Part shown: positions 754-5,076 of the stretch, piece after piece
How the letters are laid out: each line of letters begins with the position of its first letter
How positions within the stretch are numbered: the first letter of the stretch is position 1
IMG/VR virus record: IMGVR_UViG_2671180524_000022
Direction: 5' to 3' (one strand)
Source: a virus
Lineage: Duplodnaviria > Heunggongvirae > Uroviricota > Caudoviricetes
DNA: 5,076 bases
The notes under the pieces: model-generated
What the model was told of the DNA's origin: nothing
Databases searched by the model: none
The model's input: the letters and a program-made list of their open reading frames with translations, nothing else
Made by a program: the position numbers and the translations under genes

Positions 754-1494
754 TCACATACCCTGACGTCCAACGTTTGACCGCCAGCTCTCCCAGTTAA
801 AATTCACCCAACGACCACCATTCATGGTCATACGGTCCATCACCCGATCTCCGAGGAGTGTGCTCATCGCTGCGTGATTCAGGTTCGTCAGCATTCCGAC
901 ACTACGCATCGAAGCCGTTCTGCGGTCGACTATCTGGTTCAGCGTGACCTGCTCGTTGCGCGTATCCCGCTGCATGCCAATTTCATCAAGGACCAGAAGG
1001 TCAACTCCACAAAGCTCCTGTAAAAATTTTTCCCCGGACTGGCCGTTGTCGTAGCCGTCATGCAACACGCTCATGACATCGGACACGGTGACGATAATCA
1101 CGCTTCTCCCCTTCGCCATCAGCCGATTGCCAATCGCTGCTGCCAGGTGATTTTTACCGGTACCAGGTTTACCGCTGAACACGAAGTTTGTACATCCGGT
1201 CATCAATTCATCGGCAATGGATTTCGCCTGGCTCAGAGCATGGCGCTGACCGTCGTTCTGCACCCGGTAGTTCCCGAATGAGCACTTCCTGTGAAGCGGC
1301 TGGATGCCCGCACGGTTCAGGATTTTTTCAACCCGCACCTGATGATTCAGGCGGTTAATCTCCTCGCTGCGTTTTCGTCCTTCAGCAAGTTGCCATTCCC
1401 GCCACTCCTCCACCGTCCGGTACGGTGGAACCGCCCCCTGTGGTGCAAGTCTGCGAATACGTTCAAGAACCCCAACTGCCGCAATGTTTTTCAT
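754..1494 (-). CDS. dnaC: DnaC-family AAA+ helicase loader (prophage replication protein, lambda P functional analogue; Rac YdaV-like)
   Basis: 246-aa ORF. Walker A FSGKPGTGKNHLAAAIG, Walker B DLLVLDEIG, and near-colinear similarity to E. coli DnaC as I recall it (PLHxxCSFxNYRV, NQIVDRR, GMLTNxN, LGxRVMDRM). Minus-strand ATG at 1494 with GGGGG about 10 nt upstream; lies 6 nt downstream of the initiator stop. Confidence 0.93.
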   Translation of the reverse strand: MKNIAAVGVLERIRRLAPQGAVPPYRTVEEWREWQLAEGRKRSEEINRLNHQVRVEKILNRAGIQPLHRKCSFGNYRVQNDGQRHALSQAKSIADELMTGCTNFVFSGKPGTGKNHLAAAIGNRLMAKGRSVIIVTVSDVMSVLHDGYDNGQSGEKFLQELCGVDLLVLDEIGMQRDTRNEQVTLNQIVDRRTASMRSVGMLTNLNHAAMSTLLGDRVMDRMTMNGGRWVNFNWESWRSNVGRQGM

Positions 1495-1500
1495 GACACG

Positions 1501-2463
1501 TCACCCCCTGAATCCCGGCGGTATTTCAGTGTCCGGTTCAGAAATGTGATTCACGCAACGCTGCGCGGGCGAACGCCCCAGGCGGATAACCAGTTCATCC
1601 CATTTTTCCCGGAGTTTTGCCGGACTCATGATGTTTTTTACCCAGAACGAATCCCGCTGGAGACGCCCAAACATTTCACAAATTTGTCTGTGAGTTCTGC
1701 CATCCAGCATCCGCATTGTCCGCACGTCATTGGCCCATGCAGTCCAGTTGGGTTCTTTCGGTCTCGTGATCTCGCCATCATCGCTGGCCGCCTGCTCGTA
1801 AAGACTCACGATTCGTCCCCAGATCCACTGTGCGCACACCAAATCTTCCTGACTTCCCCACTGGCGTTTTTTCGCACTGAACACAACCGCGTCAGGGTGT
1901 CGGGTTAAAAAATTCTGTTCAGCCGTCTGCGGGTCCGGTTGCGAAGCGTCCGGACAAGAAGATCTTTTATCTGACGGATCAGGTTTTAATACTGACGGAT
2001 CGGGGTCAATCATCGCCCCCCTAATCGGCAGTTTGTTATCAACAGTTGATCCATCAAAATTTGACGGGTCAACCGTTGAGGGGGCAATATTTGACGGGTC
2101 AACTGTTAACGGGTCATTTTTTGCCGGGCTAATTTTTCTTTTCGGTTTATATGACTCACGCGCCGCCGCAGCAGCTGCTTCGAGTTTTTCCACATTAAGC
2201 CGATAGATATTGCTTACATTACGCCCACCGACCTTACGCTCTTCCTTCGTCAGCCAGCCCTCTTTCGCCAGTTCTGCAATAGCCGATTTCACTGTGGATT
2301 CACTTCTTGCACCGATCTGACGCCGGATAGTTTCAATGGCAGGCCATGACACGCCCTCGTCATTGCTGTAGTCTGCAAGACGGGCCATAACCGCCACCCT
2401 GGATAAGATCATGCCGGTGAAGGCGCACCCTTCCCAGACAAGACCATGAAGCTTGCTGCTCAT
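1501..2463 (-). CDS. Phage replication initiator (lambda O analogue): N-terminal winged-helix DNA-binding domain, Pro/Asp/Ser-rich repeat linker, C-terminal domain
   Basis: 325-aa ORF in the track (GTG at 2478). ATG at 2463-2461 preceded by GGGG is the more likely start (MSSKLHGLVWEG...). The N-terminus (SWPAIETIRRQIGARSESTVKSAIAELAKEGWL) is HTH/winged-helix-like. It sits directly upstream of the helicase loader. The linker is encoded by the iteron-like DNA repeats. Confidence 0.8.
   Translation of the reverse strand: MSSKLHGLVWEGCAFTGMILSRVAVMARLADYSNDEGVSWPAIETIRRQIGARSESTVKSAIAELAKEGWLTKEERKVGGRNVSNIYRLNVEKLEAAAAAARESYKPKRKISPAKNDPLTVDPSNIAPSTVDPSNFDGSTVDNKLPIRGAMIDPDPSVLKPDPSDKRSSCPDASQPDPQTAEQNFLTRHPDAVVFSAKKRQWGSQEDLVCAQWIWGRIVSLYEQAASDDGEITRPKEPNWTAWANDVRTMRMLDGRTHRQICEMFGRLQRDSFWVKNIMSPAKLREKWDELVIRLGRSPAQRCVNHISEPDTEIPPGFRG
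1969..2120. repeat. Iteron-like direct repeats and nested palindromes inside the initiator gene, with an adjacent AT-rich tract (2116-2156); candidate prophage replication origin
   Basis: CTGACGGATC at 1971-1980 and 1992-2001 (period 21). ATTTGACGGGTCAAC at 2059-2073 and 2089-2103 (period 30). CGGGGTCAAT at 2001-2010 and ACGGGTCAT at 2109-2117. Palindromes ATCAACAGTTGAT (2038-2050) and TTGATCCATCAA (2046-2057), plus TTGAC-GG-GTCAA within each 15-mer. T-rich stretch attttttgccgggctaatttttcttttcggtttatat follows. Confidence 0.5.
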
Positions 2464-2485
2464 AAAACCCCCGAACACCGTGCTT

Positions 2486-2880
2486 TTAGTGCATCACCAC
2501 AGCATTCCCTGCCGGGCCGCCGCGATTCATCTGGTCATACAAAACAACCGCTGACGCAACAAAATCATCGACATCCTTCACCAGCCGATCCCTCCGTTCG
2601 ACGATCTCACGGTAATATTCAGAACTGTGGCTGCGCATACGGGCCACCAGCAAAGGCGGCATCGCCTTTTCGATCGCCGGTAACAGAGCCTGCATTTTTT
2701 CAACAGCATCAGGGGTGTCTTTATCCNNNNNNNNNNNNNNNNNNNNNNNNNNNNNNNNNNNNNNNNNNNNNNNNNNAGCTCGAAATACGCTTTGGTAATT
2801 TTCGCAGCCGGTACTTTTTCGCCGTCCGGATGCGCCCAGACATTCATCGCCATGCGGATGTGTTCATGCTTGATTTTCAT
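2486..2880 (-). CDS. YdaT-like protein (cII-position gene of Rac-type prophages), interrupted by the assembly gap; true length unknown
   Basis: N-terminal piece MKIKHEHIRMAMNVWAHPDGEKVPAAKITKAYFE from ATG 2880-2878, which overlaps the cro-like stop as ATGA. C-terminal piece ...DKDTPDAVEKMQALLPAIEKAMPPLLVARMRSHSSEYYREIVERRDRLVKDVDDFVASAVVLYDQMNRGGPAGNAVVMH ends with TAA at 2488-2486. The two pieces are in different frames across the 50 N, as expected for a gap of arbitrary length. The MKIKHEHI start matches my recollection of E. coli YdaT. Confidence 0.55.
2727..2776. other. Assembly gap (run of 50 N)
   Basis: 50 consecutive n characters, seen directly. Confidence 0.97.
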
Positions 2881-3179
2881 GAATCAACTCCATCAGATAA
2901 GCATGCACTACAATCACCTTCAGCATGAACTACATGTGTTTGCCCCAAACGAATGCCGCTCGCATACTCAGGCCAAATAAGCTCCCAATCATGGGGTCGT
3001 AGCTCCGCCCTACTTACTTGGCCTTCCGTCGCAGATTCGATCATAAGGGCGCGGGTTGGAGATATAGCTGTTCGTCCAGACGCCATTTGCGATAAGTAAG
3101 ATGGCGATACACCAAGTCTGGCCGCGAATTTCTTAGCATCACCAACCCTTAATGATTTAATAAACTCTTTTAATGTCAT
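2877..3179 (-). CDS. Cro-like HTH regulator, YdaS family
   Basis: 100-aa ORF. Strong SD GAGGAAGG immediately upstream of ATG 3179-3177. HTH segment AARLGVSPSYLSQMASGRTAISPTRALMIESATEGQVSRAELRP. Divergent from the repressor gene across the operator region. Stop TGA overlaps the next gene's ATG. Confidence 0.8.
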   Translation of the reverse strand: MTLKEFIKSLRVGDAKKFAARLGVSPSYLSQMASGRTAISPTRALMIESATEGQVSRAELRPHDWELIWPEYASGIRLGQTHVVHAEGDCSACLSDGVDS

Positions 3180-3276: not shown

Positions 3277-3648
3277 ATGCAAAAAAAAGAAATTCGCCGT
3301 TTACGTCTCAAGGAGTGGTTTAAAGATAAAACTCTGCCACCCAAAGAGAAGAGCTACCTATCTCAACTAATGAGTGGGAGAGCCTCGTTTGGAGAAAAGG
3401 CTGCCAGAAGAATAGAGCAAACATACGGGATGCCGGAAGGGTATCTGGATGCGGAATACGCAGAACAACCGGGGGGTTCTCCACCACATGCAGGGTTAAC
3501 GTCTAATCAACTGGAATTATTGCAGATTTTTTCAGCCTTCCCTGAGGATGAGCAACGCCAGATAATCAGCGAGTTAAAGCAGAAAAAAGAATCAATGGAA
3601 GATCTCATAGCGAGATGGATTGCGGCGCAAAAATGCCGCCGCGCCTGA
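3277..3648 (+). CDS. paaR: HTH immunity repressor at the cI position; likely also regulator of the downstream toxin-antitoxin pair (PaaR-like)
   Basis: The track ORF starts at 3214, but the ATG at 3277 (123 aa) lies just downstream of the -10 element and clear of the operator repeats. HTH segment KEKSYLSQLMSGRASFGEKAARRIEQTYGMPEGYLD. C-terminal LTSNQLELLQIFSAFPEDEQRQIISELK resembles the DicA C-terminus as I recall it. Stop TGA at 3646-3648. Gene symbol from recalled operon architecture only. Confidence 0.7.
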   Translation: MQKKEIRRLRLKEWFKDKTLPPKEKSYLSQLMSGRASFGEKAARRIEQTYGMPEGYLDAEYAEQPGGSPPHAGLTSNQLELLQIFSAFPEDEQRQIISELKQKKESMEDLIARWIAAQKCRRA

Positions 3649-3668
3649 GTTATAAAACCGGAGGAAAC

Positions 3669-3860
3669 ATGAATAGAGCCCTTTCACCAATGGTTTCTGA
3701 ATTTGAAACCATTGAACAAGAAAACAGTTACAACGAATGGCTGCGTGCGAAAGTAGCAACGAGCCTTGCAGATCCGCGCCCAGCAATTCCCCATGACGAA
3801 GTTGAGCGCAGAATGGCAGAACGCTTTGCTAAGATGCGCAAGGAACGGAGCAAGCAGTAA
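3669..3860 (+). CDS. paaA: Small antitoxin (63 aa), PaaA-like partner of a ParE toxin
   Basis: ATG 3669 with GGAGG at 3660-3664. Product MNRALSPMVSEFETIEQENSYNEWLRAKVATSLADPRPAIPHDEVERRMAERFAKMRKERSKQ is small and charged, consistent with a partly disordered antitoxin. Its stop TAA at 3858-3860 is 1 nt before the toxin ATG. Length matches my recollection of PaaA2 (63 aa). Confidence 0.75.
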   Translation: MNRALSPMVSEFETIEQENSYNEWLRAKVATSLADPRPAIPHDEVERRMAERFAKMRKERSKQ

Positions 3861-3861
3861 A

Positions 3862-4140
3862 ATGTTACCCGTGTTATGGCTTGAAAGCGCAGATACCGAC
3901 CTAGATGATATAACTAGTTATATTGCTCGTTTCGACATAGATGCGGCTGAACGCTTATGGCAGCGATTAAGGGGTTGTGTGCTGCCGTTATCCGAACATC
4001 CGTATTTATACCCACCAAGCGACAGAGTACCTGGCTTGCGTGAGATTGTAGCCCACCCTAACTATATAATTCTATACCGCGTAACAACATCAAGCGTTGA
4101 AGTAGTAAACGTGATCCACGCAAGACGCCAGTTTCCCTAA
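3862..4140 (+). CDS. parE: ParE/RelE-superfamily toxin (92 aa)
   Basis: ATG at 3862 in the same frame as track ORF 3766..4140. Product MLPVLWLESADTDLDDITSYIARFDIDAAERLWQRLRGCVLPLSEHPYLYPPSDRVPGLREIVAHPNYIILYRVTTSSVEVVNVIHARRQFP shows the typical ParE pattern (N-terminal helices, C-terminal ...ILYRV...VEVVNVIHARR). Translationally coupled to the upstream antitoxin. Confidence 0.85.
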   Translation: MLPVLWLESADTDLDDITSYIARFDIDAAERLWQRLRGCVLPLSEHPYLYPPSDRVPGLREIVAHPNYIILYRVTTSSVEVVNVIHARRQFP

Positions 4141-4157
4141 CTTTCACTACCAATAGA

Positions 4158-4205
4158 AACATAACAACCGCAACGACTTTATCAAAAGCGTTGTGTTTGT
4201 TATGT
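4158..4205 (+). terminator. Imperfect inverted repeat downstream of the toxin gene; possible terminator or protein-binding site
   Basis: Left arm aacataacaaccgcaacg (4158-4175) and right arm cgttgtgtttgttatgt (4189-4205) pair at about 15 of 17 positions around a 13-nt loop. No clean U-tract follows, so this is not a canonical intrinsic terminator. Confidence 0.25.
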
Positions 4206-4210
4206 CCCGC

Positions 4211-4255
4211 GGTTTAGTTTTTACTTGACTTAAGTTTAATGTTTATTAAACTAAA
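4211..4255 (+). promoter_or_regulatory. Second operator/promoter-like module (OL/pL-like), rightward
   Basis: GTTTAGTTTTT (4212-4222) and palindrome GTTTATTAAAC (4241-4251) resemble the OR motifs. -35 TTGACT 4225-4230, 16-bp spacer, -10 TAAACT 4247-4252. The TTGACTTAA...GTTTATTAAAC...TAAACT arrangement is shared with the minus-strand cro promoter candidate. Confidence 0.35.
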
Positions 4256-4570
4256 AATACCAACCCACCCCGCCCCACAGAACGCAGGGAAATACTTCGA
4301 GTTACCCGGCAGTGGTCAGGGGTTAAGTAGCCAGCCCGAGGCGTATGAACATGACGGCAGGGTTCAACTTTAATAACTATGCAGCAGTTTTTTGTTCCGC
4401 TACCCCGGCGTTAAGGGGAAACAGAGGGTTTCTCAGTGGGCGAAGTCAAACATCAGAATGGAAGGCATCCCGGGATCGGCAAAGAAGCAGCAATGGCGCT
4501 TTATATTGACATCAGCGCCATTGCAGGACAGGTAAGAGTTATCAGAGCGGTAACTAAGCGGTATGCGCCT

Positions 4571-4771
4571 TTACTTCAGAAAGTCTCTGGTGAGTGCACC
4601 GAAGATATTGTCAACGATTTCGTCATCGAACTGCGAGGACTCATCTTCAGTTACAAGGTGACCACAATTTTTGCAGATGGCTCCCGCGAAACTGTCAGAG
4701 CCCTGCGGCTTAAAGGATGTGTCAAAGACTTCGCCACCACATTCTGGGCAAGAAAACTTGATTGTATTCAT
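4571..4771 (-). CDS. Small zinc-ribbon protein (CxxC...CxxC), function unknown
   Basis: Minus-strand ATG at 4771-4769 (the track starts at TTG 4777) with SD GAGAGGAA 7 nt upstream. Product MNTIKFSCPECGGEVFDTSFKPQGSDSFAGAICKNCGHLVTEDESSQFDDEIVDNIFGALTRDFLK has two CxxCG pairs and an acidic tail. Few rare codons, unlike the overlapping plus-strand ORF. Confidence 0.6.
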   Translation of the reverse strand: MNTIKFSCPECGGEVFDTSFKPQGSDSFAGAICKNCGHLVTEDESSQFDDEIVDNIFGALTRDFLK

Positions 4772-4864
4772 AACCAATTTCCTCTCGAGTAACAGACCCC
4801 TCAGAGGATACCACCTCGCCTGACGTGGTTAAAAAGCAGGCAACGCTAACCACAAGGAGCCGAC

Positions 4865-5076
4865 ATGCAGAAACGAGACCCCGTCATCATCGCGCCAGAC
4901 TATACCGATGATGAACTTTATGAGTGGATGCACCAGAAAATTAAGGCGGTGCAGGACCTGAAATGGGCCAATGAAGCCAGGGCTAAGCAGGCTGAAAATC
5001 TGTCCGCTCTGGAGCAGGATATCACCAATCTGGAAAAAGCAGCGGCATTAAGCATTGCCAGAATGATTACATACCC
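4865..5076 (+). CDS. Hypothetical protein, 5' portion only (runs off the window end)
   Basis: AAGGAG at 4854-4859, 5 nt before ATG 4865. Open to the window end: MQKRDPVIIAPDYTDDELYEWMHQKIKAVQDLKWANEARAKQAENLSALEQDITNLEKAAALSIARMITY.... Absent from the ORF track because there is no stop in the window. Coiled-coil-like composition from about residue 25. Confidence 0.6.
   Translation, partial: MQKRDPVIIAPDYTDDELYEWMHQKIKAVQDLKWANEARAKQAENLSALEQDITNLEKAAALSIARMITY

Follow-up and report, generated by a model that had tools for sequence, protein, structure and literature searches.

Where two open reading frames (ORFs) occupy the same DNA on opposite strands, which of them is the gene, or are both? 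The question is raised by a viral stretch of 5,076 nucleotides (Caudoviricetes; IMG/VR record IMGVR_UViG_2671180524_000022), hereafter the window, which corresponds to the immunity region of the cryptic prophage CP-933P and is 99.9% identical to chromosomes of Escherichia coli O157:H7. At the beginning of its early-left operon, a 66-residue zinc-ribbon gene on the minus strand (the Zn gene) lies antisense within a 118-codon ORF on the plus strand (the plus ORF). Both ORFs are present as an initial annotation of the window had described them; this annotation favored the Zn gene and dismissed the plus ORF. Our comparative analysis suggests that such an either/or framing is probably wrong, and we regard the chances as evenly balanced that both frames encode functional proteins and constitute a conserved nested antisense pair. 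The elements of the locus are as follows.

4225-4252, plus strand: early-left promoter PL933P, TTGACT-16-TAAACT, sigma-70-like by a consensus scan, with operators nearby
4257-4435, plus strand: 5' leader of the PL transcript
GTG 4436 to TAA 4790-4792, plus strand: the plus ORF, 118 amino acids, first cistron of the PL operon, matching phrog_21318
ATG 4771 to TAA 4573-4571, minus strand: the Zn gene, 66 amino acids, ECs_2282 family, CPEC...CKNC
4786-4779, minus strand: Shine-Dalgarno (SD) sequence of the Zn gene, GAGAGGAA, 7 nt before ATG 4771
4805-4842, minus strand: promoter-like block of 38 nt, recognized by nucleotide conservation
4521-4476, minus strand: intrinsic terminator of the Zn transcript, with the hairpin at 4521-4493 and a T-rich tail at 4492-4476
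4865-5076, plus strand: ydfC, the next PL-operon cistron after the plus ORF, running off the window (phrog_1744)

The Zn protein carries the motif MNTIKFSCPECGG (CPECGG) followed by CKNCGH and is acidic, with an isoelectric point (pI) of 4.2. As stated in the initial annotation, the gene possesses an SD sequence and few rare codons, namely two, compared to 15 in the 118-codon plus ORF. The homology search proposed there yielded a match of the 66-residue protein to the family NF047912 with 57.3 bits, well above the cutoff of 37, in which residues 4-59 align to profile positions 1-56 of 60. RefSeq/PGAP names the identical O157:H7 gene 'ECs_2282 family putative zinc-binding protein', and the family as such had been catalogued before. 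Homologues were found in Escherichia, Citrobacter, Klebsiella, Enterobacter, Serratia, Cronobacter, Hafnia and Duffyella, and among full-length homologues the identity to the Zn protein of the window drops to ~27%. In an alignment of 26 proteins of the family both CxxC knuckles were found, three of the four putative zinc ligands (C11, C33, C36) as well as G37 being invariant and the fourth ligand, C8, nearly so. Structural modeling with AlphaFold2 (AF2) predicted two short strands (residues 5-7 and 14-16) and, at 42-64, a C-terminal helix, at a mean predicted local distance difference test (pLDDT) score of only 56. Profile matches in the PDB were limited to generic CPxCG and Rpb12-type ribbons (E>=0.004), and among the PHROGs the protein matches phrog_4852 best, an entry without annotation (E 1e-9 to 4e-11, profile of 194 positions). 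A scan of genome contigs with a profile of the Zn alignment returned two spurious short matches only, one in Bacteroidota and one archaeal. For NF047912 there is a family name only; a literature search revealed no function, expression data or paper for it, and nothing relevant was found in the literature on ECs2282, NF047912, PDC-M14 or phrog 4852.

Several lines of evidence mark the frame of the Zn gene as the target of selection. For the comparisons between species, 13 lineages were collected through the Zn protein, and in nearly all of them the SD sequence (AAGGA-type) and the ATG of the Zn gene are kept; in most lineages this SD sequence lies at or just past the stop codon of the plus ORF, and in the window it sits within the final codons of the latter. 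Among six distinct sequences of clade A, dN/dS is 0.18-0.35 in the Zn frame versus 0.28-0.79 in the plus frame. Variation within the species was assessed in 80 near-identical E. coli viral loci representing 36 alleles, a set which is useful for single-nucleotide polymorphisms (SNPs) only. The SNPs in the overlap are distributed 6:1:18 over the first, second and third codon positions of the Zn frame, and 16 of them are synonymous and 9 non-synonymous in this frame, while the corresponding numbers for the plus frame are 6 and 19. In addition, we performed a permutation test in which the plus protein was held fixed and its synonymous codons were shuffled. The similarity of the Zn proteins between clades collapsed under this treatment (observed 4488, null 1300±166, z=19; each tested pair z=3-6); therefore, coding in the plus frame does not account for the Zn frame.

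These results bear directly on the view that only the plus ORF is real and the Zn frame spurious, which is implicit in phrog_21318 and phrog_29546 and in the GenBank phage records Evi, vB_EcoS-640R1, Stx2_14040 and ST974-OXA48phi18.2, all four of which annotate the plus ORF only. This view may further draw on natural nonsense alleles of the Zn gene in E. coli: 18 of the 80 loci carry E14* (4732 C>A), and a single locus carries E44* (4642 C>A). The former changes the plus protein from F to L and the latter is silent in the plus frame, so that the plus ORF stays open with both; starting from its internal ATG (see below), it is intact in 80/80 loci, unlike the Zn gene. However, the two mutational events behind the nonsense alleles are too few to weigh. 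Against a plus-only coding locus stand, besides the z of 19 and the concentration of variation at third positions of Zn codons, the match to a curated NCBIfam model above its cutoff and the maintenance of the CPxC and CxxCG knuckles, the SD sequence and the ATG down to ~27% identity. The comparative data thus already contradict this view, which we consider highly improbable, and mark the zinc-ribbon gene as genuine. In this respect the preference expressed in the initial annotation was well founded.

The Zn gene also appears to be equipped as an autonomous prophage transcription unit, or moron. About 50 nt past its stop codon, a GC-rich stem, ATGGCGCT-N13-AGCGCCAT, is followed by the T-rich tail listed above. 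The hairpin was seen in every clade, with the clearest T-run in loci L088, L091 and L101 (numbered loci refer to our comparison set). RNAalifold predicted nine pairs, two of them compensatory, and the G-U pairs of the minus-strand transcript are A-C mismatches in the plus sense. The unit is thus, judging by structure and covariation, provided with its own terminator, within the stem of which falls an ATG of the plus ORF at 4493. Upstream of the gene, the initial annotation had considered an own promoter somewhere in 4772-4864. The conserved block at 4805-4842 fits this suggestion with respect to position and may act as the Zn promoter: it displays a -35 element, TTAACC, at 4832-4827, a 16-nt gap and an extended -10 element, TGGTATCCT, with TATCCT at 4810-4805, and the extended -10-like TGGTATCCT lies 33-36 nt before the ATG of the Zn gene. 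The block is conserved at the nucleotide level in 10 of the 13 lineages, among them Klebsiella phages with a Zn protein of only ~30% identity, and the 36 E. coli alleles are free of SNPs in this region, the sole variant being a 1-nt difference in the length of an A-run at 4831. Another promoter-like site reported by the scan (4788-4761, minus strand) was rejected, as its -10 element is located inside the Zn coding sequence.

The same block contains interleaved inverted repeats, GCCTG...ACCAC...CAGGC...GTGGT, which are nearly unchanged in 10/13 lineages. The arrangement is compatible with an H-type pseudoknot (on one strand or the other) or with a site for protein binding that overlaps the putative promoter of the Zn gene; since the arms are invariant, no covariation is available for these repeats.

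If the Zn gene is genuine, what is the plus ORF? The initial annotation had correctly reported its GTG start and its several rare codons, while the statement that it lacks an SD sequence did not hold, as an SD-like AGAGGG is located 8 nt upstream of GTG 4436. The conserved core of the ORF comprises 99 residues (pI 8.9) from the internal ATG 4493, which is the start conserved among homologues, and the profile of phrog_21318 similarly begins at the internal Met 20. The extension from GTG 4436 is kept open in variants of the window's sublineage at 72-85% identity; a 1-nt deletion at 4444 in 9/80 loci breaks this extension and spares the ATG-started ORF. The AF2 model of the plus protein reached a mean pLDDT of 69, higher than that of the Zn protein, with a helix-helix-strand-strand-helix arrangement. 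Foldseek searches with this model against BFVD and PDB gave no match with E<=0.001, a PDB sequence search with the plus protein returned nothing, and the ORF has no Pfam hit. We also considered the plus ORF as a lambdoid N antiterminator and rejected this assignment, as there is no N_peptide hit and loci L099 and L103 have a separate N_peptide gene before the module. The two products are of opposite charge, as seen from their pI values of 4.2 and 8.9, and therefore binding between the Zn and the plus protein is conceivable as a possibility.

According to RefSeq and the initial annotation, only the Zn gene is real, and the plus ORF would be called merely because it is the longer one. RefSeq/PGAP calls the Zn gene alone at this locus, and the 15 rare codons of the plus ORF are consistent with this interpretation. 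Moreover, the frames are exactly codon-aligned, each plus codon being the reverse complement of a Zn codon; therefore a stop in the plus frame requires TTA, CTA or TCA in the Zn gene, and only these three codons need to be avoided. The chance that the plus frame is open was calculated to be 0.05-0.31 per lineage, or 5-39% when expressed as the chance of a single lineage to stay open, with synonymous sites saturated between clades. Nevertheless, the plus frame is open over the entire Zn gene in 13/13 lineages, a sample that is unbiased for the plus frame because the lineages were gathered through the Zn protein, which itself is intact in 12 of them and truncated in L103. None of the 43 Leu codons in the Zn genes is TTA or CTA and none of the 81 Ser codons is TCA (0/124 stop-creating codons in total), compared to 16% for Leu and 21% for Ser in long ORFs of the same loci. 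The start of the plus ORF is similarly hard to attribute to chance. An ATG is located 24-32 codons past the stop codon of the Zn gene (48 codons in L103 with its truncated Zn ORF), and in 11/13 lineages this ATG is accompanied at the homologous place by a canonical SD sequence (AGGAG, GGAGAGGAA, GGAGG, GAGGTG, GAGGGTGAG, GGGAG and others), even though the upstream contexts of ATG and SD are non-homologous among lineages.

A further indication comes from the spacer that separates the stop codon of the Zn gene from the terminator hairpin and is neither Zn-coding nor part of the hairpin. Assigned to the codon positions of the plus frame, the minimal changes number 11:16:29 for clade A, 11:8:21 for clade B and 22:24:50 for both clades together; the pooled pN/pS values are 0.29/0.71 for clade A and 0.42/0.88 for clade B. 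The phase of these substitutions is opposite to that expected from a former extension of the Zn frame. Together with an orientation relative to the early operon that is invariant (see below), these findings make it unlikely that the plus ORF is only a shadow of the Zn gene. Its dismissal in the initial annotation is unsupported because stop avoidance, the SD sequence and ATG, the periodicity of the spacer and the co-orientation with the operon represent independent coding signals. Zn-synonymous divergence within the overlap does not reach the level of plus-synonymous divergence seen in the spacer (for instance, 0.44 versus 0.63 for L088-L091), which is suggestive only.

The Leu codons of the Zn genes from the 13 lineages are unevenly used: CTC occurs 23 times, CTT 11 times and CTG in only 6 of 43 cases, while CTG accounts for 39% in neighboring long ORFs. 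CTC, CTT and CTG read Glu, Lys and Gln in the plus frame, and the skew may thus be a footprint of the opposite frame.

Several observations weigh against two functional proteins. As to the plus frame, the constraints on the Zn gene explain the similarity of the plus proteins within the overlap almost fully: when Zn-synonymous codons were permuted, the z values for the plus frame were -0.5 to 2.3 per pair, and the pooled value of 4.05 is inflated by related pairs. An OLGenie-like estimate of plus pNN/pNS in the overlap gave 0.48 for clade A (confidence interval (CI) 0.34-0.65) and 1.02 for clade B (0.61-1.80), and this estimator is biased, since NN sites are mostly second positions. The value for clade B is what would be expected for a shadow ORF, while that for clade A argues for a product under selection. 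An apparent N-terminal motif of the plus protein, 'IDAS', was rejected and is not counted as protein conservation because it coincides with the arms of the terminator stem. Purifying selection on the plus frame is present outside the overlap, while inside it the signal is weak, inconsistent and not robust. In addition, ATG 4493 of the window has a poor SD sequence, and L092 has only a TTG at this position. As to the Zn gene, the nonsense alleles indicate that it is dispensable in some E. coli, the consensus promoter scan did not call the block at 4805-4842, and L099, L100 and L103 have no -10-like TATnnT in their upstream block. Finally, searches of Pfam, PHROG, PDB, fold and PADLOC resources recognized no functional relative of either protein.

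A different explanation is that both frames are translated and the protein made from the plus ORF lacks an independent function. Ribosomes on the plus ORF would then shield the early transcript from Rho and from decay on its way to ydfC, dicB and the recombination genes. Such a role is consistent with the conservation of stop avoidance, SD sequence and ATG while amino-acid selection in the overlap is unclear, and with the finding that the extent of the plus ORF nearly coincides with that of the Zn transcription unit, between the terminator and the start codon of the Zn gene. The plus family is also tiny and devoid of relatives: an exhaustive hidden Markov model search with the plus-ORF profile retrieved only eight clusters (at 50% identity), all from one clade. 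On the other hand, translation as such does not predict pN<pS and a third-position bias in the N-terminal spacer, and the compact fold modeled by AF2, albeit at moderate confidence, and the pNN/pNS of clade A also speak against it. We regard translation without a functional plus product as rather unlikely, and prefer the interpretation of a nested pair in which both proteins function.

The orientation of the two ORFs was compared in all contexts in which the module was found.

Directly after the PL leader: the window, L101
After N: L099, L103 and probably L100
After cro in the pR operon: L086, L087
After cI/pL: L088-L093, L102
After KilA: L097

The plus ORF shares the direction of the early operon in every context, and the Zn gene consistently points the other way, in line with the initial annotation, which had noted that the Zn gene runs against the direction of the early-left operon. 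The rule holds even in L086 and L087 5001-5285 (Citrobacter and Klebsiella variicola prophages), where the module is located in the pR operon immediately behind cro, at the position of cII, and not after pL: here, too, both ORFs keep their orientation relative to the operon. A comparable arrangement is known for sieB of the lambda/P22/Rac type, which occupies the same niche with the same counter-orientation to a PL-type operon; in K-12 Rac it opposes ydaG-ydaF-kilR (L105 1961-2449), and in L092 the Zn gene even has sieB (4323-4823) as its tandem neighbor, both on one strand. sieB is a prophage-expressed gene. The two genes share no sequence similarity, and SieB is a membrane protein of ~160-190 residues.

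The regulatory setting of the module in the window is comparatively well defined. The pL-like promoter upstream, already pointed out in the initial annotation, is identical to the published PL933P at 4225-4252, which drives gfp in promoter-gfp assays and is repressed ~100-fold by PaaR2 and YdaS (PMC8630535). Of 5426 complete E. coli genomes, >4000 carry the leader (4257-4421) at a conservation of 88-99%, always without annotation, and it is also found between racR and ydaG in K-12 Rac. Its 3' end, ccggcgttaaggggaa, is the ribosome-binding site of the first cistron in the Cronobacter locus L101. The leader is not predicted to fold better than shuffled sequences (z 0.87), and a search of Rfam gave no match to it. 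In the genome, dicB and ydfD come after ydfC.

Based on this setting, a most likely mechanism can be proposed, albeit more tentatively than dual coding itself. The locus would be a compact two-strand module moving as one unit between enterobacterial prophages and would represent an ancient nested pair, in which both proteins are functional and linked to the lysis-lysogeny switch by an interlock at the level of RNA or transcription. Its minus strand would carry an autonomous unit consisting of the promoter-like block, the SD sequence, the Zn ORF, a 3' untranslated region of ~50 nt and the intrinsic terminator, and its plus strand an early-operon cistron of ~99 residues that begins at the terminator and ends a few codons from the start of the Zn gene; both frames would be translated. 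In the lysogen, where PL is repressed by PaaR2, the Zn unit alone would be expressed, as a counter-oriented prophage gene placed like sieB. Upon derepression of PL, polymerases and ribosomes would cross the plus ORF towards ydfC and dicB, and convergent transcription together with a full-length sense/antisense RNA duplex would decrease expression of the Zn gene, so that the two products would mark opposite states of the switch. Conversely, transcription of the Zn gene could damp leaky read-through from PL into the toxic downstream genes. We infer Zn promoter activity, translation of either ORF, mutual exclusion and a biochemical function from sequence features, and the interference and duplex steps from the geometry of the locus and the known antisense controls of phages.

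The remaining genes of the window are arranged as follows.

754-1494, minus strand: DnaC-like gene
1501-2478, minus strand: O-like gene
2486-2880, minus strand: ydaT, in part masked (see below)
2877-3179, minus strand: ydaS/cro-like gene
3277-4140, plus strand: paaR2, paaA2 and parE2

A run of 50 N at 2727-2776 hides part of ydaT, the cII equivalent, which therefore is not fully readable from the window. Between the end of parE2 and PL, a long, near-perfect hairpin (aacataacaaccgcaacg...cgttgtgtttgttatgt) is present at 4159-4205, which looks like a terminator or insulator separating the toxin-antitoxin operon from PL. An Rfam match of this hairpin to mir-4703 was dismissed as a chance match far below the gathering score, and a speF match, equally far below its gathering score, is not real.

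If the nested pair is confirmed, it will be of interest for several reasons. Protein coding on both strands is rare in bacteria, and dual coding at this locus has been missed by every current annotation. The annotations conflict systematically, RefSeq taking one strand and the GenBank phage records together with PHROGs the other. An antisense unit upstream of dicB and related toxic early genes could also set the threshold for leaky expression in a prophage of a pathogen. Since the frames are codon-aligned, frame-specific knockouts by single-base changes are feasible: a single change can kill either ORF while being silent for the other, which would allow unusually clean experiments, and the E14* and E44* alleles constitute ready-made frame-specific knockouts.

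With regard to known systems, the claim in the initial annotation that small zinc ribbons located here often serve host takeover or anti-defence gained no firm footing. The restriction-alleviation proteins Lar/RalR and PDC-M14A, a PADLOC candidate for a defence gene, are likewise small CxxC...CxxC phage proteins encoded in the same genome neighborhood as the Zn gene; the similarities are below the reliable threshold and cover the generic zinc-ribbon part only. An identity with Lar/RalR was rejected, as the Lar-like phrog_6422 was matched with E 0.0098 and 0.0075 only, no matched stretch passed on its own and there was no Pfam Lar hit. The same applies to PDC-M14A, which was matched by three divergent members of the family at E 2e-4 to 9e-3 over positions 18-87 of 152 and whose partner genes are not evident in any of the contexts. 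The Zn product is a member of the NF047912 family, the description of which does not include an ORF on the opposite strand. The novelty does not lie in the family: it is the conserved two-strand architecture that appears to be new.

Temperate phages employ antisense or convergent controls such as OOP/cII of lambda, sar/ant of P22 and pR/pL of coliphage 186. The Zn unit resembles these systems in that a short counter-transcript with its own promoter (here putative) and terminator lies inside an early operon, and therefore interference or RNA pairing would be expected. It differs in that its counter-transcript codes for a conserved protein and extends over an entire cistron. Complete antisense embedding of one ORF within another has likewise been described for nog1, laoB, ano, asa, pop and olo of E. 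coli O157:H7, which were detected as overlapping genes since annotation pipelines allow one frame per locus. The paper on three overlapping genes of enterohaemorrhagic E. coli states that none of its genes is located in a phage region. Long antisense overlaps in bacteria and phages are contested, most candidates being young and known from expression data only; the published O157:H7 genes are taxonomically young and restricted, with support from RNA-seq and Ribo-seq. The pair described here offers evidence of the opposite kind, namely deep conservation across Enterobacterales, separate sequence signals including start signals for each partner, and a defined regulatory setting after a repressor-controlled promoter. 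If our interpretation is correct, this pair has persisted down to ~27% protein identity, unlike the mostly young and restricted antisense overlaps of bacteria.

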